Shown here: positions 9,168-39,610 of the stretch, one piece after another | How the letters are laid out: every line of letters begins with the position of its first letter | How positions within the stretch are numbered: position 1 is the stretch's first letter | DNA from: Candidatus Latescibacterota bacterium | Lineage (GTDB): Bacteria; Latescibacterota; UBA2968; UBA8231 | Length of the DNA stretch: 64,000 nt | Reading direction: 5' to 3' | Assembly: GCA_965219385.1 (NCBI GenBank) | Contig: CBDCNM010000002.1 | Coordinates: 4,164,305 to 4,228,304 of the forward strand | Position numbers and translations under genes: made by a program | The notes under the pieces: generated by a model | The model's database searches: none | What the model saw: only the letters and a program-made list of their open reading frames with translations | Told to the model about the DNA's origin: nothing

Positions 9168-10136
9168 TCACCGCACAAAGGTCGCCTTGATCCGGCTCCA
9201 GGTCACGCTCTCCACCGCTGAGTCGGGGAGCTCACCCCCAGGACCCACCAGCAGTCCCCGGACGAAGTTGTCGGCATTCCGGAATATAACCGACGAGTAA
9301 TCTCCCTCCGCAATAAAATGCGTAATAAAATGCATGCCTTCCGGCTGGATTCCCGCGTCGTCATGATCTAGAATTGTGAGGGAAAACCCGATCAGCGTCC
9401 CAGGCGACAACGCCGACACCACACTCTCCTCCGGGCTGTTCCAAATCAACCGATCAAAGGGTGTCACGTAGAATTCCGTCACCGAAAACGTGGGATGCTC
9501 GCCGAAAGAAGCCCCACCTCCCTCCACATACGGCGGCAGATTGAACCAGTCCTCGTCGCCATATAGACTCTGAGGGAACAAGCATACATGGGGGCCGCCG
9601 CCGACGATGTCACCCAGGACATGGTAGCCTTGAGCATGTTGATTCATCAGCAGTCGGCGCTCCTCATCGAACGAGCCGCCCACGATGACTGGGGGCATGA
9701 AGAAGTATTCCCCGCCACTGGCGTCGCCGTCCACTATGAAGCCTACATAAGAATCATGCCGCGCCATCTGAATACATGATGAGGAGATCGTTCCATCATA
9801 TTCATAGGTATTGATATATATATCATCGGAGCGCTCGACCGCCCCATAGATGCGCTGGGTGGCCCCGTGCCAGGCCAGCCAGACGCGGTAATCCATATCG
9901 GCCGGATTATACGGGGCCAGATCGGGACGGGTCTGAAAGTCCAGGGCAGTCAGGGTGGGTTCGCCCAGCAGGTCCACCCACTCGTCGATGGACCCATCGG
10001 TCACGTCAATCTGGGCCAGGTCCGCGTCGGTCAACTCGACGAAGGGATAGATCCTTTCGCTCTCCTGTGCCTCGGCGCCATGGAGTAGCCCCACCACCAG
10101 GCCGATAATGGGTAGGAAACGCTTTACCAGGTTCAT
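9168..10136 (-). CDS. Array paralog A6: secreted CBM9/DOMON-like protein (322 aa)
   Basis: Sec signal (AEA|QES), DGSIDEW, WLAW, TEFYVTPFD, GTLIGF and tail SAVESVTWSRIKATFVR. Confidence 0.85.
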   Translation of the reverse strand: MNLVKRFLPIIGLVVGLLHGAEAQESERIYPFVELTDADLAQIDVTDGSIDEWVDLLGEPTLTALDFQTRPDLAPYNPADMDYRVWLAWHGATQRIYGAVERSDDIYINTYEYDGTISSSCIQMARHDSYVGFIVDGDASGGEYFFMPPVIVGGSFDEERRLLMNQHAQGYHVLGDIVGGGPHVCLFPQSLYGDEDWFNLPPYVEGGGASFGEHPTFSVTEFYVTPFDRLIWNSPEESVVSALSPGTLIGFSLTILDHDDAGIQPEGMHFITHFIAEGDYSSVIFRNADNFVRGLLVGPGGELPDSAVESVTWSRIKATFVR

Positions 10137-10208
10137 CGTGGTCCTTCCTTAGGTTGAATTTCCATTGAAGTGGTCCCCTGGGCCCCGGCCGGCCGCCGGT
10201 CTGGCACC

Positions 10209-11168
10209 TCACCGGACAAACATCGCCTTGATCCGGCCCCAGGTCACGCTCTCCACCGCCGAATCTGGTACCTCACCCCCAGGACCCACCAGCAGCCCCC
10301 GGGCAAAGGTGTCGGCGTTCGTGGTATCGGACCAATAGTCCTGGCCCACAATAGAATGGGCAGTTTCCGCCCGCCAGGCGCCTTCCTCGTCAAGATCTGC
10401 AATGGTCAGGATAAACCCGATCAGGGTCCCACGCGACAACGTCGACACCACACTCTCCTCGGGGCTGTCCTGAATCAACCGATCAAAGGGCGTCACGTAG
10501 AATTCCGTCACCGATAGTGTGGGCTGCTCGCCGAAAGAAGCCCCACCCCCCTCCGCATACGGCGACAGATTGAACCAATCTTCGTCGTTATATAGACTCT
10601 GATCAACCAAGCATACATGGGGGCCGCCGCCGACGATGTCACCCAGGACGATGTAGTCTTGAGCGTGTTGATTTATCCGCAGCCGGAGTTCCTCATCGAA
10701 CCCGGCGCCTATATTGATACTGCCCTCCGAGAAGCGGCGGTATTCCCCGCCGCTGGCGTCGCCGTCCACACCGAAGAATACCGAAGAATCATGCTCGTTC
10801 ATCCAAATACATGAACGGATCGTTCCATCATATTCATACTTATTGATATATATATCATCGGCGCGCTCGACCGCCACATAGAGGCGCTGGGTGGCCCCGT
10901 GCCAGGCCAGCCAAGCGCGGTGATCCATATCGGCCGGATCATACGGTGGCCGATCGGGACGGATCTGAAAGTCCAGGGCGGTCAGGGTGGGTTCGCCCAG
11001 CAGGTCGATCCACTCGTTGACGGACCCATCGGTCACGTCGATTTGGGCCAGGTCCGCGTCGGTCAACTCGACGAAGGGATAGATCCTTTCGCTTTCCTGT
11101 GCCTCGGCACCATGGAGTAGCCCCGCCACCAGGCCGATAATGGGTAGGGACCTCTTTATTAGGTTCAT
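10209..11168 (-). CDS. Array paralog A5 (319 aa)
   Basis: Same scaffold as A6, intact ORF with GGAGG RBS. Confidence 0.85.
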   Translation of the reverse strand: MNLIKRSLPIIGLVAGLLHGAEAQESERIYPFVELTDADLAQIDVTDGSVNEWIDLLGEPTLTALDFQIRPDRPPYDPADMDHRAWLAWHGATQRLYVAVERADDIYINKYEYDGTIRSCIWMNEHDSSVFFGVDGDASGGEYRRFSEGSINIGAGFDEELRLRINQHAQDYIVLGDIVGGGPHVCLVDQSLYNDEDWFNLSPYAEGGGASFGEQPTLSVTEFYVTPFDRLIQDSPEESVVSTLSRGTLIGFILTIADLDEEGAWRAETAHSIVGQDYWSDTTNADTFARGLLVGPGGEVPDSAVESVTWGRIKAMFVR

Positions 11169-11588
11169 CCTAGTCCTCCCTTAGGTTGAATTTCCATTGA
11201 GGTGGTCATATATCCGTTGGGCCGCCATAAAGGCCGGCGATCCAACGGACAGGTTCACGCCATTGGACTCCGAGCACTCCGTGCGCTTCATCCAACCGCG
11301 CCAACTCGCTGCCTCAGTAATGGTTAGCCGCCGGCCAGCGCCTCACCGGACAACCGTTGCCTTGATCCGGCCCCAGGGTGATACGGGCACGGGTTCAGCG
11401 CGAGGGAAAACATTCGTTCTTTCAAGCAAAACCAACACGTTGCGCGGCGGTGCAAAAACCACCATAACCCGTCAATTCTTCAGATAGATAGCGATTTTCC
11501 CCTCTACTGAACCCGTGCCACCATGTACAACGGCGTAGCTTAAGTACCAAGCCGCTCAAGACCGTGAATCTTTATACCTTGAGCGTCA
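11169..11588. repeat. ~420-bp array leader, duplicated at 39611..40017
   Basis: Long near-identical stretches shared with 39611-40017, e.g. gatccaacggacaggttcacgccattggactccgagcactccgtgc. Confidence 0.9.
11386..11519. mobile_element. 134-bp MITE-like element, copy 1
   Basis: 13-bp perfect terminal inverted repeats GGCACGGGTTCAG (11386-11398) and CTGAACCCGTGCC (11507-11519), extending imperfectly to GGGAAAA. No target-site duplication seen. Confidence 0.5.
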
Positions 11589-11685
11589 ATAGCAATAGCA
11601 AAGATCTTCGTCATACACGGAACACATGTACCTAGAGCATTTTGCCCCGTGGGCGCAAATATGGGCACAGCCCTGCTCATTCTGA

Positions 11686-11978
11686 ACATAGATGCGGTGG
11701 GTGGCCCCGTGCCAGGCCAGCCAGACGCGGTAATCCATATCGGCCGGATCATACGGTGCCCGATCGGGACGGGTCTGAAAGTCCAGGGCGGTCAGGGTGG
11801 GTTCGCCCAGCAGGTCAATCCACTCGTCAATCGAGCCATCGGTCACGTCGATCTGGTCCAGGTCCGCGTCGGTCAACTCGACGAAGGGATAGAGCCTTTC
11901 GCTTTCCTGCGCCTCGGCGCCACCAAGCAGCCCCACCACCAGGCCGATAATGGGTAGGGACCTCTTTATTAGGTTCAT
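11686..11978 (-). pseudogene. Array paralog A4, 3'-truncated
   Basis: Family homology ends at ATHRIYV. The ORF continues in unrelated sequence to a stop at 11586. Confidence 0.85.
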
Positions 11979-12045: not shown

Positions 12046-12992
12046 TTAGCGGACAAACATCGCCTTGATCCGGCTCCAGGTCACGCTCTCCACCGCTGGG
12101 TCGGGGATCTCGCTCCCAGGACCCACCAGCAGCCCCCGGGCGAAGTCGTCGGCGTTCCGGAGACCGGTCCACTGGTCCTGGCCGCTAATAAAATGGAGCC
12201 CTCCCCGCAGCTCGCCTTCCACGTCAAAATCACGAATGGACAGGATAAACCCGATCAGGGTCCCACGCGACAACGCCGACACTACACTCTCCGCCGGGCT
12301 GTTCCAAATCAACCGATCAAAGGGCGTCACGTAGAATTCCGTCACCGATAGCGTGGGCTGGGCCCCGAAAGAGGCCCCACCCCCCTCCGCATACGGCGGT
12401 AGCTCAAACCAATCTTCCTCTGGGCTGGAAAACCCCAAGCATACATGGGGGTCGCTGCCAGAGATGTCACCCAGGACGATGTAGGTTTGAGCGTGTTGAT
12501 AATTCAGCAACCGGTGTTCATCCCGGTCCTCGATCTCGTTGTTCAAGAAGAAGTATTTTCCGCCGCTGGCGTCGCCGTCCACATCGAACACTACAGAAGA
12601 ATCATGCACCAACATCGAAATACATGGGAAGCTCGCATCACCACCTTCCGCAGCATCACCCTCTTCATAGTTATATATATATCATCGGCGCGCTCGACCG
12701 CCACATAGAGGCGCTGGGTGGCCCCGTGCCAGGCCAGCCAGACGCGGTAATCCATATCGGCCGGATCATACGGTGCCCGGGGATGGGCCTGAAAGTCCAG
12801 GGCGGTCAGGGTGGGTTCGCCCAGCAGTTCCACCCACTCGTCAATCGAGCCATCGGTCACGTCGATTTGGGCCAGGTCCGCGTCGGTCAACTCGACGAAA
12901 GGATAGAGCCTTTCGCTTTCCTGTGCCTCGGCGCCACCAAGCAGCCCCAACACCAGGCCGATAATGGGTAGGAAACGCTTTATTGTTTTCAT
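12046..12992 (-). pseudogene. Array paralog A3, frameshifted in the (AT)n run
   Basis: Split into 12591..12992 and 12046..12615. Removing one AT unit at ~12672-12682 restores DDIYNYEEGDAAEGG. Confidence 0.85.
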
Positions 12993-13033: not shown

Positions 13034-13967
13034 TCACCGCACAAACGTCGCCTTGATGCGGCTCCAGGTCACGCTCTCCACCGCTGAATCTGGTACCTCA
13101 CCCCCAGGGCCCACCAGCAGCCCCCGGGCGAAGGTGTCGGCGTTCAAGGGACTACCGGTCCACTGGTCCTGGGCCCTAATAGAATGGTACCCCTGCCGCT
13201 CGCCTTCCTTGTCATAATCTGGAATTGACAGGATAAACCCGATCAGGGTCCCACGCGACAACGTCGACACCACACTCTCCTCCGGGCTGTTCCAAATGAA
13301 CCGATCAAAGGGCGTCACGTAGAATTCCGTCACCGATAGCGTGGGATGAGCCCCGAAAGAGGCCCCGCCCCCCTCCGCATACGGCGGCCGCTGAAACCAA
13401 TCTTCCTCTGGGCTGGAAAACCCCAAGCATACATGGGGGCCGCCGCCGAAGATTTCACCCAGGACGAGGTAGATTTGAGCGTGTTGATTCTTCAGCAACC
13501 GGCGTTCCTCGTCGTCCTCGATCTCGTTGTTCAAGAAGAAGTATTTTCCGCCGCTGGCGTCGCCGTCCACACCGAAGAATACCGAAGAATCATGCCCCAG
13601 CATCGCATCACATAAAGCTCTCGCATCACTACCTTCATAATTATTAATATATATCATCCGCGCGCTCGACCGCTACATAGAGGCGCTGGGTGGCCCCGTG
13701 CCAGGCCAGCCAGACGCGGTGATCCATATCGGCCGGATCATACGGTGCCTCATCGGGATCGGTCTGAAAGTCCAGGGCGGTCAGGGTGGGTTCGCCCATC
13801 AGGTCGACCCACTCGTCAATCGAGCCATCGGTCACGTCGATCTGGGCCAGGTCCGCGTCGGTCAACTCGACGAAAGGATAGAGCCTTTCGCTTTCCTGCG
13901 CCTCGGCTTCATAGAGCAGCCCCACCACCAGGCCGATAAGTTGTAGGAAACGCTTTCTTGTTTTCAT
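13034..13967 (-). pseudogene. Array paralog A2, frameshifted in the (AT)n run
   Basis: Split into 13644..13967 and 13034..13657. Adding one AT unit at ~13647-13654 restores DDIYINNYEG. Confidence 0.85.
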
Positions 13968-14008: not shown

Positions 14009-14944
14009 TCACCGGACAAACGTCGCCTTGATGCGGCTCCAGGTCACGCTCTCCACCGCTGAATCTGGTACCTCACCCCCAGGACCCACCAGAAGGCCCC
14101 GGGCAAAGGTGTCGGCGTTCCAGATACTGGACCGCCGGTCCTGGGCCATAATAGAATGGGCAGTTTCCGCCCGCCAGGCACCTTCTTCGTCAATATCTGG
14201 AATTGCCAGGATAAACCCGATCAGGGTCCCACGCGACAACGTCGACACCACACTCTCCGCCGGGCTGTTCCAAATGAACCGATCAAAGGGCGTCACGTAG
14301 AATTCCGTCACCGATAGCGTGGGATGAGCCCCGAAAGAGGCCCCACCTCCCTCCGCATACGGCGGCCGCTGAAACCAATCTTCATCGTTATATCCACTCT
14401 GAGCCCACAAGCATACATGGGGGCCGCCGAAGGTTTCCCCCAAGACGAAGTACCCTTGAGCGTGTTGATTGGTCAGCAGCCGGTATTCATCCGGGTCATC
14501 GATCTCGTCGCTGAAGAAGAAGTATTTCCCGCCGCTGGCGTCGCCATCCACATTGAACATTACATAAGAATCATGCCTATCCATCAAATCACATGAACGG
14601 ATCGTTCCATCATATTCATAATTATTGATATATATATCATCCGCGCGCTCGACCGCCACATAGATACGATTGGTGGCCCCGTGCCAAGCCAGCCAGACGC
14701 GGTGATCCATATCCGCCGGATCATACCCCGCGAGACCGGTCTGAAAGTCCAGGGGGGTCAGAGTGGGTTCACCCAGCAGGTTGACCCACTCGTTGACGGA
14801 CCCATCGGTCACGTCGATCTGGTCCAGGTCCGCGTCGGTCAACTCGACGAAGGGATAGAGCCTTTCGCTTTCCTGTGCCTCGGCTCCATGGAGCAGCCCC
14901 ACCACCAGGCCGATAATGGGTAGGAAACGCTTTACTGTTTTCAT
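14009..14944 (-). CDS. Array paralog A1 (311 aa)
   Basis: Start MKTVKRFLP at 14944 by homology. Intact to TWSRIKATFVR. Confidence 0.85.
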   Translation of the reverse strand: MKTVKRFLPIIGLVVGLLHGAEAQESERLYPFVELTDADLDQIDVTDGSVNEWVNLLGEPTLTPLDFQTGLAGYDPADMDHRVWLAWHGATNRIYVAVERADDIYINNYEYDGTIRSCDLMDRHDSYVMFNVDGDASGGKYFFFSDEIDDPDEYRLLTNQHAQGYFVLGETFGGPHVCLWAQSGYNDEDWFQRPPYAEGGGASFGAHPTLSVTEFYVTPFDRFIWNSPAESVVSTLSRGTLIGFILAIPDIDEEGAWRAETAHSIMAQDRRSSIWNADTFARGLLVGPGGEVPDSAVESVTWSRIKATFVR

Positions 14945-15015: not shown

Positions 15016-15248
15016 TCACCGGACAAAGGTCGCCTTGATGCGGCTCCAGGTCACGCTCTCCACCGCCGAGTCGGGGAGCTCACCCCCAGGGCCCACCAGC
15101 AGCCCCCGGGCAAAGGTGTCGGCGTTCGAGCTGTCGGACCAATAGTCCTGGCCCACAATAGAATGGACAGTTTCCGCCCGCCCGGGCGCCTTCCTCGTCA
15201 ATATCTCCAATGGTCAGGAAAAACCCGATCAGATCGCCACGCGACAAC
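15016..15248 (-). pseudogene. Array paralog A0, 3' fragment only
   Basis: AETVHSIVGQDYWSDSSNADTFARGLLVGPGGELPDSAVESVTWSRIKATFVR. The 5' part is missing. Confidence 0.85.
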
Positions 15249-15364: not shown

Positions 15365-15766
15365 TCACTCCGCCACGTAGCTCAGGACGAGATCGCGCAA
15401 AGTCACCATGCCGAGCGGGTTGCGCTCGTAGTCGACGACCACGGCGCGGGAGAGTTCAAAGCGCACGAGCAAGCGCACCGCGTAGCGGGCGAGCATGCCC
15501 GACGGCAGGGTCAACACCGGCTTTGACATGATTTCGTACACGTTGACGCGCTCGGGCGCGCGGTTTTTGGCGATCACCTCGCGTGCAATGTCCGCGACCA
15601 CGAGCAAGCCGAACTCGTCGTCGTCGTCGCGCCGGTTGACGGCGAGCGAACTGATCTCGTAGCGCTTCATGAGTGCCATGGCCTCGGCCACGGTCGCAAG
15701 CCTGTCGATAGTGTAGAGTTTGGAGCCCATGACGTCTCCGACCCGGATGGTGTGTTTCTCGCTCAT
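15365..15766 (-). CDS. CBS domain-pair protein
   Basis: VGDVMGSKLYTI...VYEIMSKPVLTL...LGMVTLRDL. Confidence 0.9.
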   Translation of the reverse strand: MSEKHTIRVGDVMGSKLYTIDRLATVAEAMALMKRYEISSLAVNRRDDDDEFGLLVVADIAREVIAKNRAPERVNVYEIMSKPVLTLPSGMLARYAVRLLVRFELSRAVVVDYERNPLGMVTLRDLVLSYVAE

Positions 15767-16113
15767 ATTTCGTCATCCACTTCTTCTAGGATGGTGGGAA
15801 GTTGGGTGGTGAGACCGACGGCGTCCTCAATCGGGATCTGGAAGGCAATGCCAGCGCCGGGGTCTTGCTCAAAGCGTCCGGCATCGCGGATGCGCTCCAA
15901 AATGTCGCGCGCTCGCGTCTCGACCACCAGGAACAGGACGACATCGCGACGGGCCGCCAGGTCGAGACCGAAAAAGGTTTTCTGCGGCTTCAGCCCTTCG
16001 CCGCGCACGCCAGTGATAATCGTCGCGCCGGTCGCACCGCCGGCGCGCGCAGCATCGACCACGGTATCGGTCTTGTCGTCGCTGACCAAGGCGATGATCA
16101 ACTTCAGTTTCAT
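15763..16113 (-). CDS. P-II family regulator
   Basis: KLIIALV, AGATGATI..RGEG and GIAFQIPIEDAVG motifs. Confidence 0.88.
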   Translation of the reverse strand: MKLKLIIALVSDDKTDTVVDAARAGGATGATIITGVRGEGLKPQKTFFGLDLAARRDVVLFLVVETRARDILERIRDAGRFEQDPGAGIAFQIPIEDAVGLTTQLPTILEEVDDEI

Positions 16114-16116
16114 GGC

Positions 16117-16902
16117 TCAAGTCTCCTCGGAATGGTTGGCGTTCCGCCGGCGACTCACCCAGGATACTACCATAGCATAGCCCAGCACGGACATGATGGG
16201 AAAGACGCTGGCGAACGCGATGAGGCCGAATCCGTCGATCAGCGGGCTGCGCCCGGGAACAGTGGCGGCGAGCCCCAAGCCCAGTGCGGCGACCACTGGC
16301 ACCGTGACGGTCGACGTGGTGACGCCGCCGCTGTCGTAGGCGAGCGGCACAATGGTCCGGCCCGACCGGAAGGTCTGGACGATCACCACGACATATGCGG
16401 CAATGATGTACCAGGGCAGGGGCGTGCCAGTGACGATGCGAAAGCAGCCCAGCGCCACCCCCACGGCGACCCCGAGCGCCACGGCGATTCTGAGGCCCCA
16501 GGAGTGGATCGCGCCGCCCGAGACCTCCTCGGCCTTGAGCGCGACCGCGATGAGCGAGGGTTCGGCCACTGTCGTCGCAAAGCCGATCGCCGCGGCAAAG
16601 GCGTAGACCAGCAGGTAGTCGTACCAGTCGACGCCGTCAGCCAGACTCCCCTTCCCAATGGTCTCGGGCGCGGTGAGTTGGCGCGCCATGGTCTCGCCGA
16701 TGGGGAAGAGCGCCTCCTCCAGGCCAATGAGGAAGAGCGTGAGTCCCAACAGGACGAAGACAAACCCGGTCGCGATCCGGCGCAGGTTTGGCAGGTTGCG
16801 GCGCAGCACCGCAACCTGGAACAGAACGAGGATGCCGACAATAGGCGCCACATTGAGCGCGGTGGAAACCGCGGTGACGGCAAAAGTGAGCAGGAACTCC
16901 AC
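16117..16902 (-). CDS. DUF1538 family membrane protein
   Basis: [26 protein letters not shown] and [10 protein letters not shown]. Probable GTG start at 16902. Confidence 0.88.
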   Translation of the reverse strand: MEFLLTFAVTAVSTALNVAPIVGILVLFQVAVLRRNLPNLRRIATGFVFVLLGLTLFLIGLEEALFPIGETMARQLTAPETIGKGSLADGVDWYDYLLVYAFAAAIGFATTVAEPSLIAVALKAEEVSGGAIHSWGLRIAVALGVAVGVALGCFRIVTGTPLPWYIIAAYVVVIVQTFRSGRTIVPLAYDSGGVTTSTVTVPVVAALGLGLAATVPGRSPLIDGFGLIAFASVFPIMSVLGYAMVVSWVSRRRNANHSEET

Positions 16903-16903
16903 C

Positions 16904-17638
16904 TCAGACCACCATGCCATAGGCCAGTACAAAGATTATGGGCGTCAGGCTGGCAAAGGCGATGAGCCCAAAGCCGTCGACCATTGGATTGCGTCCCCGG
17001 ATTGACGTTGCGAGCCCGACACCCAACGCGGTGACGAGCGGCACTGTGATCGTGCTGGTGGTGACGCCACCGGAATCGTAGGCCACGCCAATGATCTCTG
17101 CGGGCGCAAACGCGGTCATTGCGGTCACCAGCGCATAGCCCCCGATGATCAGCCGGTGGATCGGCCACCCCTTGAGGATGCGTAGCACGCCGAGCACGAT
17201 TGCCGTGCCGACTGAGACCGCCACCACCATGCGCAACTCAAAGGCGTACGCAGCGCGCACCTCATCGTCGTCGGCAATGGCACCGGCTTCCGCGGCGACT
17301 TCGGCCGCCTCCGCGGCAACGGCGATCAGGGCCGGCTCCGCGACCGTGGTGCCAAAACCCAAGCAAAAGGCAAAGGCCAACAGCGCGGTCGCGCTCCCCT
17401 TGCGCGCAAAGGCCTGCGCAATGGCCTCGCCGAGGGGAAAGAGACCGCTTTCGAGTCCCTGGATGAAGAGCGTCAGGCCGGCGATCACGCAGACCAGCCC
17501 AACGGCGACGCGCTCGAGATTCGGAAAGGGCTGCTGCAACACCGCGATTTGGAAGAACGCGATGACGATGATGATGGGCACCAAATCGCGCAGCGCGTCG
17601 ATGATCCGCCGCAATATCGCGCTCAGGGCTCTGGTCAC
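16904..17638 (-). CDS. DUF1538 family membrane protein
   Basis: [26 protein letters not shown] and [10 protein letters not shown]. Confidence 0.88.
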
Positions 17639-17648
17639 AATATCTCTC

Positions 17649-18535: not shown

Positions 18536-21500
18536 TTAAAGCCCCAGTTGATAGGTAACCCCCAGCTTCACCCGCCGGCCCTTGGGGTCGTGCGTGAAGC
18601 CGTCGTACGCCTGCTCGATGTTGACCAGGGGTGGCCGGGTGTCGAGCAGGTTCATCCCCGAGAGCACCATGTTGGCGCCCCTGGTCAGGCTCCACAGAAA
18701 GCTCACGTCCAAAGTGACGAAGGGGTCGATGGTACCGAACAGGTCCTTGATGGCAGCATTGCCGGAGGCCATCGATCCCCGGTCCTCGTAGGACGAGATG
18801 TAGTTCAGGTAGCTCACGATGCTGTAGGTCTTCCAGTGATAGCCTGCCGAGGCCCGCCCCTTGATCTTGGGAAGCGAGGTCGCAATGGGATTGCCGAAGT
18901 TCAGATAGCCGGCCGCGTCAGCGGCCTCCTGCAGTTCCAGATCGCCCAGCACCAAGGCCTTGGTCTCGTACGCCAGGATATAGCTGCCGTCCAGACTGGC
19001 GGCGACCTGGCCCGGGCCCGCGGGCATCCGCGTGCCCAGGTGCATGTCGATTCCCGAGGTCTTCACCCCCGGCCAATTGACGATATCGACACGCACCCGC
19101 TCGAGCTCCGAGGCCTCGCAGGTGCCCGTCCCGGGCCCGTCCGGGCAGACGATGAACTGTTTCAGGGCTTCCTTGTTTGCATCATCGGCATACAGTTCGG
19201 TGATTCTCCCGTGCGGCATGGCACCGATGACATCCTTGAAATCGTAGCTCCAGTAGTCGAAGGTCGCTTCATGGCCCGCCTCGGTGATCAGGGCGAGGCC
19301 CGCATTGTAGGTGAATGCCTGTTCGGGTTTGAGGTCCTTGCTTCCGATTCGGTCCACCGTCTGATAGGCGCCCGTCTCGTTGATCCACTCGAGCGTCGAA
19401 AGTGGGCTTTCGTTCACATCGTCCAGGGATGGAGTGCGGAACGTCGTCTGCACCGAGCCGCGCAGGAACAGGGACTGGGTGGAGGATTCGGCCAGCTGAT
19501 AGCGCCACCCGAACTTGGGATCGAAACTGCTCGCCACATCGTGGAACTCGTAGTTGGCGGCGAGCTGGGTGTCGAAGCGCGACCCCAGGCTCAGGGGAAT
19601 CTCGGCGAAGATGCGGTGCACCGTCTGCGATTCATCATACGGCCGATTCACATTGGTGAACGCATAGGGGCCGAACCTGTCCTCGGCTGAGCAGTTCATA
19701 TCGCCCACGACCGGACAGGGGTTGATGGTCACGTCGCCCTCGTCGTTGGGATCGCCGCTGGCATTGAGCAGACGGAACTGGTACCCGCCCGCGTAGCTGG
19801 CGACGTCCTCGATCCAGGTCCCGCTCAGCGTCGCGTCGGCCACCAGCACATCCGCGGTGCTCTGCAGATCGACTTCATTATCTGCCAGCCAGTGCCGCAA
19901 CTCGGGGCTGTTGGCAAGGTTGGCACGGTAAGAGGGATTCGCCTGGGTTACAAAATCCGAGCCATGTTGATCCGTGAACTCGATGGCGTTGCTGAAGGGG
20001 TTGTAGTACTGGCAGTCCCCCTGACCCGCCACCTGGCCGTTGAGCGCGCCGAGCCGCATCCCGGCAAGGGATGTGGGATCTGGATCTGCCTCCACGCCAA
20101 CGCCGCAATCCGGCCCTCCAAAACCGCGGAAGCCGAGGAAGATCCGCTCGATGTACACCCCCGGCAGGTTGTAGTTGCCCTCGGTGCGCGAATAGGACAG
20201 ACCCAGGTCGTAATGGGTCTCTCGACCACCGAATGACGCAAAGTCCCCATTCGCCGAAGCCGCCAGGCGCCAGGTGCTGGAGTCGCGGCCCAGGATGCGC
20301 CCGGGACCCGAGTTGCCGAAGGGGCGGCCGTTGAAGTACCAGTTCTCGCCGCCCTGGCACTCGGCGTAGTAGAGGTCGCCGTCCGCGGCGCCGTAGTCCT
20401 CGCAGAAGGCCTGCCGGCCCGGGTGGTCGGGCGCGACCTCCTGGATACTCGTGTCCGTCAGTGGGAAGGGAGGGTACGAAGGGGTGGTGTACCAGTTGGG
20501 AATCTCAGCCTCGGCCCACAGGCCCTCGAAGTGATACTCCGTGCCATTGTCCAGCGCACCGTTGATCTCGGCAAAGGCACGGGTATGGCTCATCTCCTCG
20601 ATCAGGTTCTCGTACTGCTGATAGCGGAAACGGCAGGTCCAGGATTCCCGGAAGCCGCCAAATTCCTCGCAACGAGGAGCGTGGATGGCAGCGGTCCAGG
20701 GGGCCGGAGCGCCAACGGCGAAGGTGCCCGGATTCCCCAGGCTCGACCATCCGAGGCGCTGCCCGCCGCCATGCCACGGCTGCAGCAGGTAGTCCCTGTC
20801 GGTGGACGGCAACTCTCCGCGTCTTCGCCATTCCCCGGCCACAACCGCATGGGCCCCGCCGAGTTGGCCGCCCCATATCGCGCCGGCGTCGCTGTCCCCC
20901 GCACCGGCCAGATACTCGTGCGAGGCCGAGACTTCGAACCCCGTGAAGTCGGAGCGGGTCAGGAAGTTGGCGACCCCGGCCACCGCATCCGATCCATAGA
21001 TGGCCGCAGCCCCCTCCTTGAGCACCTCGACCCGGTCCAGGGCGATGGAAGGGATGGCATTCACGTCGACGAAGCGCCCCCCGATCAAGCGCGCCGGGAC
21101 ATAGGTCTGGCGGCGGCTGTTGATCAACACCAGCGTCCGCGAGGCGCCCAGACCGCGCAGATTGACATTGGCAATGCTCTCGGAAAGGGTGGCGGCCTGG
21201 TTGGCGTTGTACCAACTGCTGCGCTCGCCGATCACTCCGTGGCTGGCGCTCAAGTTCTTGAAGAAATCAACCGCCTGCGGCGACCCTTGTTCGGCCATCT
21301 TTGCCCGGCCAGTCACCGCGACTGCGTAGGGCAAGTTGATGGGAGATTCCTTAAAGGCGGTGCCGGTCACTGCCGTCTCTTCAAGGAGGATCGCCGCGGG
21401 TTTTAGGCGCACCTCAACGGCCGTGGTCTGCCCGGCCTGCACCTGAACGGCGGCGGTCGCGCGCCCGTAGCCGATCAATTCGGCCGTCAGCTCGTGCGCA

Positions 21501-29023: not shown

Positions 29024-29052
29024 GTGGTATGCCCTAGGTGCTGGGCGCGTTA

Positions 29053-31581: not shown

Positions 31582-33422
31582 CAGTAGACCACCCCCACCA
31601 CGCCCTGCCGGCGCTCGGCGCCCCCATCCGCCCCCACCTGTACCTCGTACAGATACAACCCGGGAGGGACCTGCCGGCCCTGGGCATCCAGGCCGTCCCA
31701 GGTGCGGGTGTAGCGACCGTTGTCGTCGGCCCCTTCGTACACCAGCCGCACCCGACGCCCACTCAGGTCGTAGATGGCGACGAATACGGCCGCCGGCACC
31801 ACCAGCTTGAGCAGGCTGTAGCTGAGCACGAACTCATCGTTGAGGCCATCCCCATTGGGGGTAACCAGGGACAAGTTGGGCTGCACGTCCGCGATGAGGG
31901 GGAAACGTCCCTCCTCGGCGTCCAGCCGCACCACCAAGCTACCGCCGGGCAACTCCTGGTCGATATCCGCGGCTCGCGCCACTTGAAAGGCCTCGTCCAC
32001 CCCCTCGTCGGTGGTCCGCCGATCCAGGGCCCCGACCTCGAAGCGGGTGTGGTCGCGGAAGACGCGGCCAGTGAAGACGAGCTGCACGAAACTGCCGTTT
32101 TGCTCAATGCGGCGGAGCAGATTGACCGTGAAGCCCTGCCCGGGATGGTAGGTGGTGGTGGAAAACACCGGCTGGTCGTCGACGAGCGCCTGTTCCACGG
32201 CCAAGATTTCCGCGTCCGTGCCCACCCGGACATGGGTGAAGCCGGTGTCCCTGGGGTTGTAAAAGGTGCTGGTAGTCTTCAGGTGCACCTGCATGGACAG
32301 GGTGAAGCGGGTTTGCGCGCCGGGCGCCACCACCGGGGGGTGGATCTCGGCGGCGAGGTCCCGGGCCACCGGGGGCCGCAGGTATTCGAAAATCAGTTGT
32401 TTCAATTGGGTCCCTGGCAGGGAGAGGGACACGCGGAACTGCAGGTAGGGCTGCAGGCTGGGGGACCGGATCAGTCCATCGGTGACGGTCGCCCAGGCGC
32501 TCCATGCCGGATTGGGTTTGACCGGCCCCCTTTCGTCATCCTCCAGTCTCCGGTAGACTACTTCGTCGACGCGTTCGAACTCGTCTACGCCCACTACCGG
32601 CCGGCGGAAGAAGTGCAGGGGCTCGTCGTCGGGACCGGTGCGGGTCTGCACCACCATGGAGGCTTGCGAGAGATCGCCCCCTTCAAAGTACACCTTGCCC
32701 CAGACGATATTCGACCAGCTCGCCCGTATGGGCCTGGAGACGTACTCGCCCACCGGTACGGTGCCGTCGCCGTAGACTTCCAGTTCGGCGATCTCCCAGG
32801 CCCGCTCCGTGGTAGGGCTGAGGCGGATGAAGCGCACGTCCCGGCTGCTAAAGTGCCGGTCCAGCACGGGCTCGGTGTTGGGACGATGCGACGGAAAATC
32901 GAGGAGCGGCTCAAAACCCTCTGGTGTGCTCACGGAGTTGGTGGCGATGCTGAACTCCTGGAGGAAGCGACGCCGGTGTTTCCGGTCCAGGCGCGGGAAA
33001 AAGCGGAGTCGGTTGACGCGGAAGGCGCCGCCCAAGTCGAGGTACAGGGGCTCGGTGCGCGGCAGGAGCGCGCCCTCCGGATCAAAGGCCGTGCCCAGAT
33101 CGCCGTCGTAGAGCAACTCCCCCCCCTCCACGGAGTACACGTGCGATCCTGAACCTAGTATCCGCTCCACCCGGTGCAGGCCCCCATCCCGCTCCGGGAT
33201 GCCGGCGGACAGGTTGGCATTGGGGGCTACAGCCCACATCCAGATGGAATCGCGGCTGACCGCCATGAACCGGGACGACTCCCGGACCTGAGTCCAGGAC
33301 CCCCTGTTGTTGTCTGAGCCCACGATCAGGCTGTCAAGCGCTGGCAGCACCGCGACGGACCCCAGGAGGAAAAGGGCGCTTAGGCTTAGACTGAGTAAGG
33401 ACAGGCTGGTCCGCACACGCAT
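31581..33422 (-). CDS. Secreted protein with C-terminal TPNGDG/FlgD-Ig domain (613 aa)
   Basis: Signal peptide, LDLGG...RFFPR, and TPNGDGLND...IYDLSGRRVR...WDG...PPGLY. Stop/start overlap with the next gene. Confidence 0.8.
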   Translation of the reverse strand: MRVRTSLSLLSLSLSALFLLGSVAVLPALDSLIVGSDNNRGSWTQVRESSRFMAVSRDSIWMWAVAPNANLSAGIPERDGGLHRVERILGSGSHVYSVEGGELLYDGDLGTAFDPEGALLPRTEPLYLDLGGAFRVNRLRFFPRLDRKHRRRFLQEFSIATNSVSTPEGFEPLLDFPSHRPNTEPVLDRHFSSRDVRFIRLSPTTERAWEIAELEVYGDGTVPVGEYVSRPIRASWSNIVWGKVYFEGGDLSQASMVVQTRTGPDDEPLHFFRRPVVGVDEFERVDEVVYRRLEDDERGPVKPNPAWSAWATVTDGLIRSPSLQPYLQFRVSLSLPGTQLKQLIFEYLRPPVARDLAAEIHPPVVAPGAQTRFTLSMQVHLKTTSTFYNPRDTGFTHVRVGTDAEILAVEQALVDDQPVFSTTTYHPGQGFTVNLLRRIEQNGSFVQLVFTGRVFRDHTRFEVGALDRRTTDEGVDEAFQVARAADIDQELPGGSLVVRLDAEEGRFPLIADVQPNLSLVTPNGDGLNDEFVLSYSLLKLVVPAAVFVAIYDLSGRRVRLVYEGADDNGRYTRTWDGLDAQGRQVPPGLYLYEVQVGADGGAERRQGVVGVVY

Positions 33423-33466: not shown

Positions 33467-34402
33467 CTAGCGGACAAAGGTCGCCTTGATCCGGCTCCAG
33501 GTCATGCTCTCCACCGCCGAGTCGGGGAGCTCACCCCCAGGACCCACCAGAAGGCCCCGGGCGAAGATGTCGGCGTTCCAGAGACTGTCCCACTGGTCCT
33601 GGGCCCTAATAGAATGGATAGTTTCCGCCCGGCCTTCCTCGTCAAGATCTGCAATTGCCAGGTAAAACCCGATCAGGGTCCCAGGCGACAACGTCGACAC
33701 TACACTCTCCTCTGGGCTGTTCCAAATGAACCGATCAAAGGGCGTCACGTAGAATTCCGTCACCGATAGCGTGGGATGCTCGCCGAAAGAAGCCCCACCC
33801 CCCTCCGCATACGGCGGCAGATGGAACCAATCTTCTTCGTCTCCACTCTGAGCTACTAAGCATACATGGGGGCCGCCGCCGAAGATGTCACCCAGGACGA
33901 TGTAGCTTTGAGCGTGTTGATTCGTCCGCAACCGGCGTTCCTCGTCGTCCTTGATCTCGTTGCGATTGAAGTAGTATTGCCCGCCGCTGGCATCTCCGTC
34001 CACCCTGAAGTTTACCGCAGAATCATGCTGCTCCATAAAAACACATGCACGGATCTTTTCAGCACCTTCATAATTATTGATATATATATCATCGGAGCGC
34101 TCGATGGCCACATAGAGGCGCTGGCTGGCCCCGTGCCAGGCCAGCCAGACACGGTAATCCATATCGGCCGGATCATACGGTGGCCGATTGGGAGGGATCT
34201 GAAAGTCCAGGGCAGTCAGGGTGGGTTCGCCCAGCAGGTCGACCCACTCGTCGACGGACCCATCGGTCACGTCAATCTGGGCCAGGTCCGCGTCGGTCAA
34301 CTCGACGAAGGGATAGAGCCTTTCGCTTTCCTGCGCCTCGGCGCCACCAAGCAGCCCCACCACCAGGCCGATAATGGGTAGGAAACGTTTTACCAGGTTC
34401 AT
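33467..34402 (-). CDS. Array paralog B5 (311 aa)
   Basis: Same scaffold, tail SAVESMTWSRIKATFVR. Confidence 0.85.
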   Translation of the reverse strand: MNLVKRFLPIIGLVVGLLGGAEAQESERLYPFVELTDADLAQIDVTDGSVDEWVDLLGEPTLTALDFQIPPNRPPYDPADMDYRVWLAWHGASQRLYVAIERSDDIYINNYEGAEKIRACVFMEQHDSAVNFRVDGDASGGQYYFNRNEIKDDEERRLRTNQHAQSYIVLGDIFGGGPHVCLVAQSGDEEDWFHLPPYAEGGGASFGEHPTLSVTEFYVTPFDRFIWNSPEESVVSTLSPGTLIGFYLAIADLDEEGRAETIHSIRAQDQWDSLWNADIFARGLLVGPGGELPDSAVESMTWSRIKATFVR

Positions 34403-34452: not shown

Positions 34453-35526
34453 CTACCCTCTCAGCCACCCCACCCACTCAATCAGCGGCGGCACCAGATT
34501 GCCCGCGAAAAACGCCGTCACGACTACTCCACCGGTTATAAACGGTACAAAGGGCATGGACTGTTCGACGGCCACCACCCCACCCCCTGACAAGCGCCCC
34601 TCCCCTGCCAGCTTCTGCACCCGGCGCACCTGCTGCTCAGAAAGCGGCCGGCCCGCCTCGCAGATAGGGGCCTCCTCTGCCTCTGCCCCTGCTGCAAACA
34701 GCGCCTGACGAGGGATAGCCCCTGCTTGTAACAAACCCACCGGAAAGGATTGCACGAACGCCCGGCTATACCGGTGCCGCACCTGCCCATAAGCCAGCTC
34801 GAGCAGCCAGACCGCCCCCCACATCAGCACATAGGCTTGCCAGCCGCCGGTAGCCTGACCCAGGTAGAGCAACGCGACCAGACCCGGCACCAGCACCACC
34901 GGCCAGTAGCGCACCTCCAGCCCCCGCTCCAACAGCCGGTAGCCGATCACCAGCGCCCCCAGCATCTCCAGGTAGCTCAGCGGTCGTTCCAGCACCAGCC
35001 AGGCAAGGCTCAAGGCCCACCCCAGCAGCCCGGCCAGGCCCCAGGCCGCCTTGAGCCACGGCCGGCCTTCAGGCCGGTCCTGCTCCGGGGCTTGCTGCCA
35101 CGCCCGCTGCCACACCGGCACCAGCAACAAGACCAGCAAATAGCCCAGCAGCGCATTGACGACCAGCGCCACAGGGGCCGCCTGCAGCGAGAAGGGGTCC
35201 GTAGAAGGACACAGGGTGGGGGGCAAGGCTAGGGCGGCGGCCCAGTAGAGCTTGGCGTCGCCCGGCGACCAGAAGCCCAACAGGGTCAGGCCAAAGGCTA
35301 TGGCCAGTGCGGTGAGCAGCAGGGCGACGACCCGGCTCAGGGAAGTAACGTCCAGGAAAATCATGGTGAGCTGTCCGGCCAGGCCGATGGCCAAGAGCGC
35401 GAAGGTGTAGCGATTGGGCACCCGTCGTAGTTTCAGGTCGGTATAGCTGGTATACAAGCCCACCGTCAGCACCGCGGAGAGCATGACCAGCTCTACCAGA
35501 AAAACCGGATCGGTGAAAAGGTTCAT
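34453..35526 (-). CDS. A24 family peptidase, copy 2
   Basis: Near-identical to 8039..9109 (by eye about 11 substitutions and one inserted residue). Confidence 0.85.
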   Translation of the reverse strand: MNLFTDPVFLVELVMLSAVLTVGLYTSYTDLKLRRVPNRYTFALLAIGLAGQLTMIFLDVTSLSRVVALLLTALAIAFGLTLLGFWSPGDAKLYWAAALALPPTLCPSTDPFSLQAAPVALVVNALLGYLLVLLLVPVWQRAWQQAPEQDRPEGRPWLKAAWGLAGLLGWALSLAWLVLERPLSYLEMLGALVIGYRLLERGLEVRYWPVVLVPGLVALLYLGQATGGWQAYVLMWGAVWLLELAYGQVRHRYSRAFVQSFPVGLLQAGAIPRQALFAAGAEAEEAPICEAGRPLSEQQVRRVQKLAGEGRLSGGGVVAVEQSMPFVPFITGGVVVTAFFAGNLVPPLIEWVGWLRG

Positions 35527-35584: not shown

Positions 35585-36544
35585 TCACCGGACAAAGGTC
35601 GCCTTGATCCGGCTCCAGGTCACGCTCTCCACCGCTGAGTCGGGGAGCTCACCCCCAGGACCCACCAGCAGTCCCCGGACGAAGTTGTCGGCATTCTGGT
35701 GTGCAGTCGACGAGTAATCTCCCTCCATAATAAAATGCATGCCTTCCGTCTGGAGTTGGTCCGCGTCGTCATGATCTAGAATTGTGAGGGAAAACCCGAT
35801 CAGCGTCCCAGGCGACAACGCCGACACCACACTCTCCTCCGGGCTGTTCCAGATCAACCGGTCAAAGGGTGTCACGTAGAATTCCGTCACCGAAAACGTG
35901 GGATGCTCGCCGAAAGAAGCCCCACCTCCCTCCACATACGGCGGCAGATTGAACCAGTCCTCGTCGCCATATAGACTCTGAGTCCACAAGCATACATGGG
36001 GGCCGCCGCCGACGATGTCACCCAGGACACGGTAGCCTTGAGCATGTTGATTCATCAGCAGTCGGCGCTCCTCATCGAACGGGCCGCCCACACGGATGAC
36101 TGGGGGCATGAAGTAGTATTCCCCGCCACTGGCGTCGCCGTCCACCCTGAAGAGTACAAAAGAATCATGCCCCACCATCTGAATACATGAACGGATCGTT
36201 CCATCATCTTCATAGGTATTGATATATATATCATCGGAGCGCTCGACCGCCCCATAGATGCGCTGGGTGGCCCCGTGCCAGGCCAGCCAGACGCGGTAAT
36301 CCATATCCGACGGATCATACGGTGCCTTATCGGGATGGGTCTGAAAGTCCAGGGGGGTCAGGGTGGGTTCGCCCAGCAGATCGACCCACTCGTCAATCGA
36401 GCCATCGGTCACGTCGATTTGGGCCAGGTCCGCGTCGGTCAACTCGACGAAGGGATAGACCCTTTCGCTTTCCTGCGCCTCGGCACCATGGAGCAGCCCC
36501 ACCACCAGGCCGATAATGGGTAGGAAACGCTTTACCAGGTTCAT
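35585..36544 (-). CDS. Array paralog B4 (319 aa)
   Basis: Same scaffold. Closest to A6, which occupies the same position upstream of the peptidase. Confidence 0.85.
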   Translation of the reverse strand: MNLVKRFLPIIGLVVGLLHGAEAQESERVYPFVELTDADLAQIDVTDGSIDEWVDLLGEPTLTPLDFQTHPDKAPYDPSDMDYRVWLAWHGATQRIYGAVERSDDIYINTYEDDGTIRSCIQMVGHDSFVLFRVDGDASGGEYYFMPPVIRVGGPFDEERRLLMNQHAQGYRVLGDIVGGGPHVCLWTQSLYGDEDWFNLPPYVEGGGASFGEHPTFSVTEFYVTPFDRLIWNSPEESVVSALSPGTLIGFSLTILDHDDADQLQTEGMHFIMEGDYSSTAHQNADNFVRGLLVGPGGELPDSAVESVTWSRIKATFVR

Positions 36545-36616: not shown

Positions 36617-37573
36617 TCACCGGACAAAGGTCGCCTTGATCCGGCTCCAGGTCACGCTCTCCACCGCTGAGTCGGGGAGCTCACCCCCAGGACCCACCAG
36701 CAGTCCCCGGACGAAGTTGTCGGCATTCCGGAATATAGCCGACGAGTAATCTCCCTCCGCAATAAAATGCGTAATAAAATGGAACCCTTCCGCCGGGCTT
36801 TCCGCGTCGTCATGATCTAGAATTGTGAGGGAAAACCCGATCAGCGTCCCAGGCGACAACGTCGACACCACACTCTCCTCCGGGCTGTTCCAAATCAACC
36901 GGTCAAAGGGTGTCACGTAGAATTCCGTCACCGAAAACGTGGGATGCTCGCCGAAAGAAGCCCCACCTCCCTCCGCATACGGCGGCAGATTGAACCAGTC
37001 CTCGTCGCCATATAGACTCTGAGGGGACAAGCATACATGGGGGCCGCCGACGACGATGTCACCCAGGACGACGTAGCTTTGAGCGTGTTGATTCTCCAGC
37101 AACCGGTGTTCATCCCGGTCCTTGATCTCTTCAAGAGAGAAGGCGTATTTCCCGCCGCTGGCGTCGCCGTCCACCCTGAAGCTTACCATAGAATCATGCC
37201 CCAGCATCGCAGCACATATAGGTCTCGCATCACCACCTTCATAATAATTAATGTATATATCATCGGAGCGCTCGACCGCCCCATAGATGCGCTGGGTGGC
37301 CCCGTGCCAGGCCAGCCAGACGCGGTAATCCATATCGGCCGGATCATACGGGGCCCGATCGAGACGGGTCTGAAAGTCCAGGGCAGTCAGGGTGGGTTCG
37401 CCCAGCAGGTCCTTCCACTCGTCAATCGAGCCATCCGTCACGTCAATCTGGGCCAGGTCGTCGTCGGTCAACTCGACGAAGGGATAGAGCCTTTCGCTTT
37501 CCTGCGCCTCGGCGCCACGCAGCAGCCCCACCACCAGGCCGATCATGGGTAGGGACCTCTTTATTAGGTTCAT
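36617..37573 (-). CDS. Array paralog B3 (318 aa)
   Basis: Same scaffold, intact. Confidence 0.85.
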   Translation of the reverse strand: MNLIKRSLPMIGLVVGLLRGAEAQESERLYPFVELTDDDLAQIDVTDGSIDEWKDLLGEPTLTALDFQTRLDRAPYDPADMDYRVWLAWHGATQRIYGAVERSDDIYINYYEGGDARPICAAMLGHDSMVSFRVDGDASGGKYAFSLEEIKDRDEHRLLENQHAQSYVVLGDIVVGGPHVCLSPQSLYGDEDWFNLPPYAEGGGASFGEHPTFSVTEFYVTPFDRLIWNSPEESVVSTLSPGTLIGFSLTILDHDDAESPAEGFHFITHFIAEGDYSSAIFRNADNFVRGLLVGPGGELPDSAVESVTWSRIKATFVR

Positions 37574-37640: not shown

Positions 37641-38585
37641 TTAGCGGACAAAGGTCGCCTTGATCCGGCTCCAGGTGATATTCTCCACCGCTGAGTCGGG
37701 GATCTCGCCCCCAGGGCCCACCAGCAGCCCCCGGGCGAAGCCGTCGGCGTTCGAGGGACTACCGGACCACTGGTCGCCCCTAATAGCATGCCAGCCTTCC
37801 GGCAATGCGGCGCCTTCCTCGTCAAAATCTGCAATTGACAGGATAAACCCGATCAGAGTCCCACGCGACAACGTCGACACCACACTCTCCTCGGGGCTGT
37901 TCCAGATCAACCGATCAAAGGGCGTCACGTAGAATTCCGTCACCGATAGCGTGGGATGAGCCCCGAAAGAGGCCCCACCCCCCTCCGCATACGGCGGGAG
38001 CTGAAACCAATCTTCGTCGCCATATAGAGTCTGAAACCCCAAGCATACATGGGGGCCGCCGACGACGATGTCACCCAGGACGACGTAGCTTTGAGCGTGT
38101 TGATTCTCCAGCAACCGGTGTTCATCCCGGTCCTTGATCTCTTCAAGAGAGAAGGCGTATTTCCCGCCGCTGGCGTCGCCGTCCACCCTGAAGCTTACCA
38201 TAGAATCATGCCCCAGCATCGCAGCACATATAGGTCTCGCATCACCACCTTCATAATAATTAATGTATATATCATCGGCGCGCTCGACCGCCACATAGAT
38301 GCGCCGGGTGGCCCCGTGCCAGGCCAGCCAGACGCGGTAATCCATATCGGCCGGATCATACGGTGCCCGACCGGGACGGGTCTGAAAGTCCAGGGCGGTC
38401 AGGGTGGGTTCGCCCAGCAGGTCCTTCCACTCGTCAATCGAGCCATCGGTCACGTCAATCTGGGCCAGGTCGTCGTCGGTCAACTCGACGAAGGGATAGA
38501 GCCTTTCGCTTTCCTGCGCCTCGGCGCCACGCAGCAGCCCCACCACCAGGCCGATCATGGGTAGGAAACGCTTTATTAGGTTCAT
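37641..38585 (-). CDS. Array paralog B2 (314 aa)
   Basis: Same scaffold, intact. Confidence 0.85.
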   Translation of the reverse strand: MNLIKRFLPMIGLVVGLLRGAEAQESERLYPFVELTDDDLAQIDVTDGSIDEWKDLLGEPTLTALDFQTRPGRAPYDPADMDYRVWLAWHGATRRIYVAVERADDIYINYYEGGDARPICAAMLGHDSMVSFRVDGDASGGKYAFSLEEIKDRDEHRLLENQHAQSYVVLGDIVVGGPHVCLGFQTLYGDEDWFQLPPYAEGGGASFGAHPTLSVTEFYVTPFDRLIWNSPEESVVSTLSRGTLIGFILSIADFDEEGAALPEGWHAIRGDQWSGSPSNADGFARGLLVGPGGEIPDSAVENITWSRIKATFVR

Positions 38586-38656
38586 CCTAGTCCTCCCTTA
38601 TGCGGCATTTCCCTCGAAGTGGGCACCTGGGCCCCGGCCGGCCTCTGGCCAGCGCC

Positions 38657-39610
38657 TCACCGGACAAAGGTCGCCTTGATCCGGCTCCAGGTCACGCTCT
38701 CCACCGCTGGGTCGGGGATCTCGCTCCCAGGACCCACCAGAAGGCCCCGGGCGAAGTCGTCGGCGTTCCGGAGACCGGTCCACTGGTCCTGGCCGCTAAT
38801 AAAATGGAGCCCTCCCCGCAGCTCGCCTTCCACGTCAAAATCACGCATGGACAGGATAAACCCGATCAGGGTCCCACGCGACAACGCCGACACTACACTC
38901 TCCGCCGGGCTGTTCCAAATCAACCGATCAAAGGGCGTCACGTAGAATTCCGTCACCGATAGCGTGGGCTGGGCCCCGAAAGAGGCCCCACCCCCCTCCG
39001 CATACGGCGGTAGCTCAAACCAATCTTCGTCGCCATGTAGAGACTGAAGCCCCAAGCATACATGGGGGTCGCTGCCAGAGATGTCACCCAGGACGATGTA
39101 GGTTTGAGCGTGTTGATAATTCAGCAACCGGTGTTCATCCCGGTCCTTGACCTCGTTGCTACTGAAGGAGTATCTCCCGCCGCTGGCGTCGCCGTCCACA
39201 TCGAACACTACAGAAGAATCATGCACCAACATCGAAATACATGGGAAGCTCGCATCACCACCTTCCGCAGCATCACCCTCTTCATAGGTATTATATATAT
39301 CATCGGAGCGCTCGACCGCCACATAGAGGCGCTGGGTGGCCCCGTGCCAGGCCAGCCAGACGCGGTAATCCATATCCACCGGATCATACGGTGCCCGGGG
39401 ATGGGCCTGAAAGTCCAGGGCGGTCAGGGTGGGTTCGCCCAGCAGTTCCACCCACTCGTCGACGGACCCATCGGTCACGTCGATTTGGGCCAGGTCCGCG
39501 TCGGTCAACTCGACGAAGGGATAGAGCCTTTCGCTTTCCTGCCCCTCGGCGCCACGGAGTAGCCCCACCACCAGGCCGATAATGGGTAGGGACCTCTTTA
39601 CTAAGTTCAT
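38657..39610 (-). CDS. Array paralog B1 (317 aa)
   Basis: Same scaffold. Closest to frameshifted A3. Confidence 0.85.
   Translation of the reverse strand: MNLVKRSLPIIGLVVGLLRGAEGQESERLYPFVELTDADLAQIDVTDGSVDEWVELLGEPTLTALDFQAHPRAPYDPVDMDYRVWLAWHGATQRLYVAVERSDDIYNTYEEGDAAEGGDASFPCISMLVHDSSVVFDVDGDASGGRYSFSSNEVKDRDEHRLLNYQHAQTYIVLGDISGSDPHVCLGLQSLHGDEDWFELPPYAEGGGASFGAQPTLSVTEFYVTPFDRLIWNSPAESVVSALSRGTLIGFILSMRDFDVEGELRGGLHFISGQDQWTGLRNADDFARGLLVGPGSEIPDPAVESVTWSRIKATFVR

Follow-up and report, generated by a model that had tools for sequence, protein, structure and literature searches.

Two arrays of genes encoding exported proteins with a predicted CBM9-type carbohydrate-binding fold are located in the window examined here, which is the whole 64,000-bp stretch at positions 4164305–4228304 of contig C2 in the genome of Candidatus Latescibacterota bacterium G000 (5.8 Mb, 2 contigs, 94% complete). 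These proteins combine a near-invariant framework with hypervariable patches. Their genes occur beside a cassette for cysteine-rich peptides, against which the copies may act as immunity proteins.

Organization of the arrays

The first-pass annotation of this window, made from the sequence alone, had counted eight intact, two frameshifted and at least two partial copies in two arrays. This inventory was reproduced, with two partial copies; all 12 gene units, as well as the neighbours listed in Table 1, are on the minus strand. The near-invariant framework blocks with variable patches were likewise borne out as described, and the two retained cysteines proved to be exactly two in the mature part of 19/19 intact copies of the genome. 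The layout needed two corrections: the second array is broken up by an A24 peptidase gene (34453–35526), and the partial copy at 11687–11978 belongs to a longer open reading frame (ORF), in which it is fused with the end of a Cys-rich peptide gene. The eight intact window copies share 73–91% pairwise identity (mean 77%). Both array ends coincide with modules encoding FlgD-tail proteins, of the type that also flanks the single-copy orthologs described below.

Table 1. Features of the window related to the two arrays (copies are referred to in the text by their first position)
Positions	Strand	Feature	Pfam match
3326–7960	-	Downstream module: 647-aa FlgD/CHU_C-tail protein and ~890-aa protein of no known family	
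8039–9109	-	A24 prepilin-type peptidase with Asp30 and Asp90 (SPGD); putative leader peptidase of the precursor	PF01478, E 1.8e-8
9168–10136	-	Intact CBM9-fold copy, last of array 1	
10209–11168	-	Intact CBM9-fold copy	
11169–11585	-	Intergenic element (~415 bp) separating the peptide precursor from the first copy; 7 genomic sites with long matches	
11586–11978	-	Fusion ORF: N-half of a copy (11687–11978) and C-terminal half of a Cys-rich peptide core (11586–11684)	
12046–12992	-	Frameshifted copy, break in AT run near 12680	
13034–13967	-	Frameshifted copy, break in AT run near 13650	
14009–14944	-	Intact CBM9-fold copy	
15016–15248	-	C-terminal fragment of a copy	
26351–33422	-	Second downstream module: 613-aa and 842-aa FlgD-tail proteins and ~850-aa protein	
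33467–34402	-	Intact CBM9-fold copy downstream of A24 peptidase	
34453–35526	-	Second A24 peptidase, 96% identity to the first	
35585–36544	-	Intact copy; modelled, source of reference numbering	
36617–37573	-	Intact mosaic copy: V2–V3 identical to those of the 37641 copy; V4–V5 97% like 9168 and C2:210983	
37641–38585	-	Intact copy	
38657–39610	-	Intact copy, first of array 2	
39613–40014	-	Second copy of the intergenic element	
40015–40160	-	Cys-rich peptide gene remnant without leader, frame broken; precedes array 2	

The genome as a whole contains 31 close units at nine loci, 19 intact and 12 broken, as well as about eight distant paralogs with 22–29% identity. Insertion sequences are present at several of these loci. 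Both frameshifts of the window fall in the AT-dinucleotide run underlying the DDIY motif, which appears from these sequences to be a breakage hotspot. Copies at C2:209481-209806 and C2:1116532-1116834 are truncated at the same run.

Mis-assembly of strain haplotypes, named in the first-pass annotation as a potential source of the arrays, was rejected: the copies differ by 3–25% in DNA, their spacers are mostly unlike, and other long contigs encode multi-copy sets of their own. The 13650 frameshift recurs in contigs of another public run (X3), the 12680 allele in run X1 (in a contig reaching only 11 bases past the AT run), and the fusion junction at 11685 in runs X1 and X4 (where the shorter side spans ~30 bases). 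Phase variation of the AT-run length is unsupported: other runs carry the same broken alleles, and no AT run of another length was listed for their contigs, which drop rare variants. The 27 homologs from other contigs share at most 94% identity with any copy of this genome and often mix its patches; closer ones would be hidden by the 90% clustering of the database searched.

The relatives compared are labelled Candidatus Latescibacterota. Two runs labelled as sponge metagenomes cover a small share of the region, and the one examined contained short near-identical pieces; a sponge habitat and a symbiont lifestyle are therefore likely on sequence evidence. RNA data consisted of 19 short, low-depth contigs of one run and were not counted as evidence of expression.

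Predicted fold and ligand cleft

The proposed CBM9/DOMON fold was supported at the level of a predicted structure. The AlphaFold2 model of the 35585 copy (pLDDT 85) matched CBM9 modules best, with a Foldseek E value of 4.5e-9 against 7nwn and a Z score of 17.3 against 1i82 (VIA), at a root-mean-square deviation of 2.7 and with 188/189 residues aligned. Pfam CBM9_1 matched 0/110 family members at E values up to 1, and PF06452 was assigned to 37%, 13% and 94% of the members of the three nearest Atlas clusters. A heme-binding DOMON was considered and rejected: heme DOMON folds match less well (Z ~10), and Met123 and His270, although shared by all 41 close homologs, occur in only 49 and 48, respectively, of the 69 distant homologs.

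The CBM9 binding site includes Trp71, Trp175, Gln96, Ile164 and Asn172, according to the available part of PMC8280721. These positions were located in the copies from strand alternation and from a profile alignment to 1i82, itself weak (E 0.072; good to ~1 residue). Glu77 and Gln151 are presumably further residues of this site. The variable sites map to the predicted sugar cleft. The mapped cleft positions have entropies of 2.0–3.3 bits, a level reached at 40/281 positions overall, and their core-facing neighbours have entropies of 0–0.5. Invariant core-facing residues are thus interspersed along the strands with the most variable ones.

Single-copy orthologs and expanded copies

At 11/20 loci fetched from relatives, a single-copy ortholog leads an operon with genes for two FlgD-tail proteins and a ~900-aa protein. 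The cleft is the most conserved part of these 11 orthologs, which represent four genera (identity 0.86, against 0.77 in the framework), and W124, E131, Q170 and W282 are invariant in all of them. The 19 intact copies display the reversed pattern, with 0.91 in the framework and 0.21 in the cleft; the latter value is partly circular, since the cleft sites were picked with the variable sites known, which does not apply to the conservation in the orthologs. The two-Trp clamp (Trp71/Trp175 of CBM9) is complete in 11/11 single-copy orthologs and in 0/19 expanded copies, within the precision of the above mapping. Judging from the model, the predicted sugar pocket has been turned into the most variable part of the protein.

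In the tree, the 19 copies formed one clade (100/99) and the expanded lineages of three genera clustered with lower support (94/90). The copy counts in related genomes, a check proposed at the outset, indicate a lineage-specific expansion. The idea of a diversified ligand-binding repertoire is partly supported, by the variable predicted cleft; a glycan as the ligand is weakened, because the clamp fixed in the single-copy orthologs has been lost in the expanded copies.

Diversification of the copies

The ratio of nonsynonymous to synonymous polymorphism (pN/pS) was 0.26 (0.18–0.35) in the framework and 1.16 in the patches (95% bootstrap interval 0.96–1.41). The patch value is not clearly above 1; since the patches were defined by their variability, it is no proof of positive selection. 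The nearest neighbour of a copy switches from patch to patch. The copies at 36617 and 37641 share 239 identical bases at an overall identity of 89%. Neighbouring sites were less often incompatible than in shuffled data (0.34 versus 0.46, p 0.0005), and non-adjacent patches co-vary: V2–V4 with rho 0.55, both Cys-bearing and separated by an intervening patch, and V3–V5 with 0.43. Taken together, these sequence patterns indicate that the copies swap patches by recombination via their near-identical framework blocks.

Amplification with relaxed constraint, in which gene conversion homogenises the framework and the cleft drifts neutrally after loss of the sugar ligand, would account for the patch pN/pS near 1, the 12 broken units among 31, the insertion sequences at several loci and the AT-rich composition of patch V2. 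We consider it improbable in view of the framework pN/pS, the alternation of invariant core-facing residues with the most variable ones, the co-variation of non-adjacent patches and the recurrence of the expansion in three genera.

Diversity-generating retroelements similarly combine a fixed scaffold with variable ligand-binding residues. Such an origin was rejected for the copies, which have neither adenine-specific substitutions nor a template repeat; none of the three reverse transcriptase neighbourhoods examined in the genome had homology to the family. A probable retroelement of this type, separate from the copies, is located at G000:C1:868203-870531 and encodes a 310-aa reverse transcriptase with a YMDD motif. 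Its repeats (869155-869271 and 870415-870531) differ at 27 sites, 18 of them at A of the first repeat, and an insertion sequence begins directly after the second.

The peptide precursor cassette

Three loci outside the window share one gene order: an FMN_bind-like gene with a CxxC motif, two genes for TlpA/ResA-like thioredoxins, a gene for a precursor of 91–95 aa, and then the copies. An A24 peptidase gene follows at two of these loci and is absent from the third. The precursor consists of a conserved leader, a hydrophobic helix, an AxA site and a variable core with 8–9 Cys. All 16 aligned precursors have CxxxC, and the 15 that are complete have CxC as well. In the model of the precursor (pLDDT 65), the core adopts a beta-alpha-beta-beta arrangement; cysteine-stabilised alpha/beta defensins and scorpion-type peptides predominate among its best fold matches, at weak fold and profile scores. 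The aspartates listed in Table 1 for the first A24 peptidase are what we take to be the two-Asp motif of this family.

The three intact precursors of this genome face 19 intact copies, a ratio of about one to six. Each of the seven precursors or remnants has a copy no farther than 1.4 kb away, in a zone that makes up 1.1% of the genome, and seven of the nine copy loci have a precursor or remnant. Both precursors of the window are broken, one being the remnant at 40015–40160 and the other the piece inside the ORF at 11586–11978. The linked peptide, A24 peptidase and thioredoxin genes were absent from the first-pass annotation, which had offered glycans, host, phage or competitors as ligands. 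This linkage therefore points to competitors among these four options.

A pilin role of the peptide is disfavoured: no PF00437 assembly ATPase was found over the cut-off in this 94% complete genome, although 13/14 control genomes were positive. Metagenome scans for the precursor gave no match, and the scan of genomes with A1 yielded a single locus. When one peptide core was co-folded with the adjacent copy, the score was 0.02 against a mark of 0.32; this was not used as evidence either way. No family was assigned to the copies, the precursor, the ~890-aa neighbour or the ~900-aa module protein in Pfam and NCBIfam searches.

Distribution among relatives

Among the 76 genomes of the family, a precursor match was detected in 30 (up to 15 matches per genome) and the A24 peptidase in 28, all within these 30. 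The cassette of FMN_bind-like CxxC gene, two thioredoxins, A24 peptidase, precursor and copies recurs in three genera. All eight genomes with at least nine close copy matches have both precursor and peptidase, and the 46 precursor-less genomes have at most six such matches; in these counts at most 29 candidates were scored per genome, and several of the negative genomes are fragmented. Expansion and peptide cassette go together, both across genomes and within genus g18. In genera g1, g16 and g18, a CBM9-fold copy directly follows 19/24 precursors and lies within ~2 kb of 22/24.

A different partner occupies this place in the sister genus g13, where 0/20 precursor loci have a CBM9-fold gene within 1.5 kb. 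At 13 of these loci, the next gene after the precursor encodes an unrelated ~700-aa FG-GAP protein that carries a tail of the type IX secretion system (T9SS); at three, the peptide is fused directly to a T9SS-type tail, and at one a gene lies between. The C-terminus of the FG-GAP partner matches the T9SS type A sorting domain (33.7 bits against a cut-off of 23). Peptide and FG-GAP genes form tandem arrays of about 1:1, and, with the leader controlled for, partner identity follows core similarity (25 pairs, including one mis-trimmed core; partial rho 0.51, p 0.002).

Several further arrangements were observed. Loci L070-L074 (G058, G055, G071) contain tandem pairs of Cys-rich peptide and FG-GAP/T9SS-tail genes with several cysteine frameworks, and in L050, L058 and L059 the same leader precedes a series of Cys-rich repeat units that continues into a T9SS-like tail. 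In G034 (L067:11439-12500, L075, L076), a PD40/TolB-like propeller gene is located between the precursor and a CBM9-like gene, and also among arrays; it is possibly a third partner.

The copies could instead form a peptide-independent, lectin-like surface repertoire for glycans of the host or of food, with the cassette as a hitch-hiker. The CBM9 fold, the clamp-bearing ancestral ortholog at the head of a secreted-protein operon, the termination of both window arrays at such modules and the many dispersed g16 copies agree with this. It is nevertheless quite unlikely, given the loss of the aromatic clamp, the coincidence of expansion and cassette across genomes and within g18, and the unrelated family that takes the same slot in g13.

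Possible function

We interpret the copies, with a probability of roughly 0.45, as putative cognate and orphan immunity proteins against variable, predicted defensin-fold peptides of the own cassette and of related strains. The A24 peptidase would cut the prepilin-like leader, signal peptidase would release the 8-Cys core, and the thioredoxins would form its disulfides. The peptides would then damage competing relatives, a copy would sequester the peptide in its cleft, and the surplus copies may guard against peptides of other strains. This layout of toxin with cognate and orphan immunity is suggested because the position behind the peptide is taken by two unrelated polymorphic exported proteins, and because the copies have lost the sugar clamp and are in about sixfold surplus. 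Two features of known immunity arrays were found: a gene directly 3' of the putative toxin gene (the 19/24 precursors of g1, g16 and g18) and a surplus of recombining, non-identical paralogs. Somewhat more tentative is the broader picture of a new disulfide-peptide class with a prepilin-type peptidase and private thioredoxins, driving an arms race among symbionts that is answered by an antibody-like library of recombined CBM9 clefts and, in the sister genus, by FG-GAP proteins.

A number of observations weigh against the immunity interpretation. The peptide fold matches are weak (Foldseek E at least 0.37, Z at most 5.3, pLDDT 65), and the cores are mostly acidic (net charge -9 to +5), unlike cationic defensins. 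The eight expanded genomes represent only three genera. Two g16/g18 precursors have no nearby copy, many of the 73 copy matches of genome G015 are distant from its three precursors, copies are dispersed in g16, and three peptidase-linked peptide loci of g13 adjoin neither partner. Co-variation of core and next copy was absent both in this genome (rho 0.01, 6 pairs) and in g16 (rho 0.12, 6 pairs); the rho of 0.85 in g18 (7 pairs) is attributable to linkage, because the framework co-varies equally (0.86), and linkage could also be a source of the g13 signal. Finally, the interval of the patch pN/pS includes 1.

The same linkage data also fit copies that serve as carriers, escorting the folded peptide through type IX secretion, or as receptors sensing a signal from kin or host, for which the plant SCR/SRK ligand-receptor pair offers a parallel. 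The T9SS translocon SprA was detected over the cut-off in this genome, the three precursor cassettes have no ABC exporter gene, and in g13 the partner with the type A sorting domain is present at ~1:1 with the peptides, some Cys-rich domains being fused straight to the T9SS tail. Acidic cores are also more in keeping with a ligand than with an agent that lyses membranes. We regard this alternative as unlikely: a carrier would not need a sixfold surplus of variants, and no signalling domain is recognisable in the copies, which end in a short AVESxTWxRIK tail that matched no Pfam or NCBIfam model.

Copies acting as decoys for cysteine-stabilised antimicrobial peptides of the host, with the bacterial peptides as mimics or modulators of host cells, would fit the near-identical pieces in the sponge-metagenome-labelled run and the sponge ASABF-type peptide with eight Cys and the same motif described in the available part of PMC3210614. 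The strain-level turnover suits kin conflict equally, and this explanation appears highly improbable.

If the immunity interpretation is true, the cassette would represent an unrecognised family of bacterial defensin-like and other disulfide-rich peptides, present in 30/76 genomes and matured by a new route. A sugar-binding fold would have become a repertoire of recombining peptide binders, for which the conserved single-copy ortholog provides a built-in control, and a testable mechanism of strain competition or kin recognition in uncultured symbionts would be at hand. Matched pairs of peptide and binder are small and expressible, which makes a direct test feasible.

Comparison with known systems

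With CBM9 (TmCBM9-2, 1i82; CkCBM9.3, 7nwn) and DOMON proteins, the copies share the predicted fold, the cleft position and Asp-rich motifs at likely calcium sites, and the single-copy orthologs retain Trp at both clamp positions. In contrast to CBM9, the copies are stand-alone, ~90 residues longer, multicopy and mosaic, with one conserved Cys pair, a hypervariable cleft and no clamp.

A parallel in gene arrangement is offered by the tandem immunity genes esaG and tipC of the type VII secretion system, which evolve by block recombination. As far as the available text of PMC9484751 describes them, these genes also form strings of non-identical paralogs with recombination-driving conserved blocks, are gained and lost between strains, and exceed the toxin gene in number. 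Here, a type VII system is absent, the putative toxin is a disulfide peptide of 40–50 residues and the putative binder has a lectin fold.

Bacterial cis-defensins (actifensin, PMC6989792; five classes, PMC11561630) resemble the peptides, in the accessible portions of both papers, by the CxxxC...CxC framework, degenerate cores, several genes per genome and a conserved leader. The peptides described here differ by their eight Cys and mostly acidic cores, and by a prepilin-like leader with signal peptide, a dedicated A24 peptidase and thioredoxins in place of a GA-leader and ABC transporter. The main text of PMC11561630, in the part available, makes no mention of Latescibacterota, Poribacteria or sponges.

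Each part of the cassette has a known relative, and the assembly of peptide and binder is apparently undescribed. No description was found in the literature searched, including the available parts of PMC11561630, PMC6989792, PMC12426817 and PMC12993501; most subscription journals and supplements were outside this search.

Flp and type IV prepilins are processed by TadV-like peptidases and carry characteristic leader motifs. Of these, F..sEsG and K/RxG-F/L precede the hydrophobic helix in the precursor, next to an A24 peptidase gene; the AxA site after the helix and the missing PF00437 ATPase set it apart.

Additional genomic features

The C-terminal AVE..TW..IK tail was found in 37 ORFs genome-wide, comprising members of this family and a few other proteins, whose starts mostly resemble signal peptides, and is possibly a short sorting signal. 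About ten further loci combine the ~900-aa/FlgD-CHU_C-tail module with one distant CBM9-like gene (e.g. G000:C2:85773-104428, 503243-521856 and 2814274-2827804); this module may be a surface glycan-capture complex.

Just upstream of array 1 (15365-17638) are genes for a CBS protein, a PII-like protein and two DUF1538 membrane proteins. A fragment at 40950-41321 matches the terminal part of the TonB-dependent receptor encoded at 18536-21718 with 78% identity, which suggests, at the sequence level, an old segmental duplication around both arrays. The window also encodes three S9-type alpha/beta hydrolases of ~820–850 aa (44422-46869, 48345-50828 and 53057-55600), the first two of which share 75% identity over 1.7 kb in opposite orientation.

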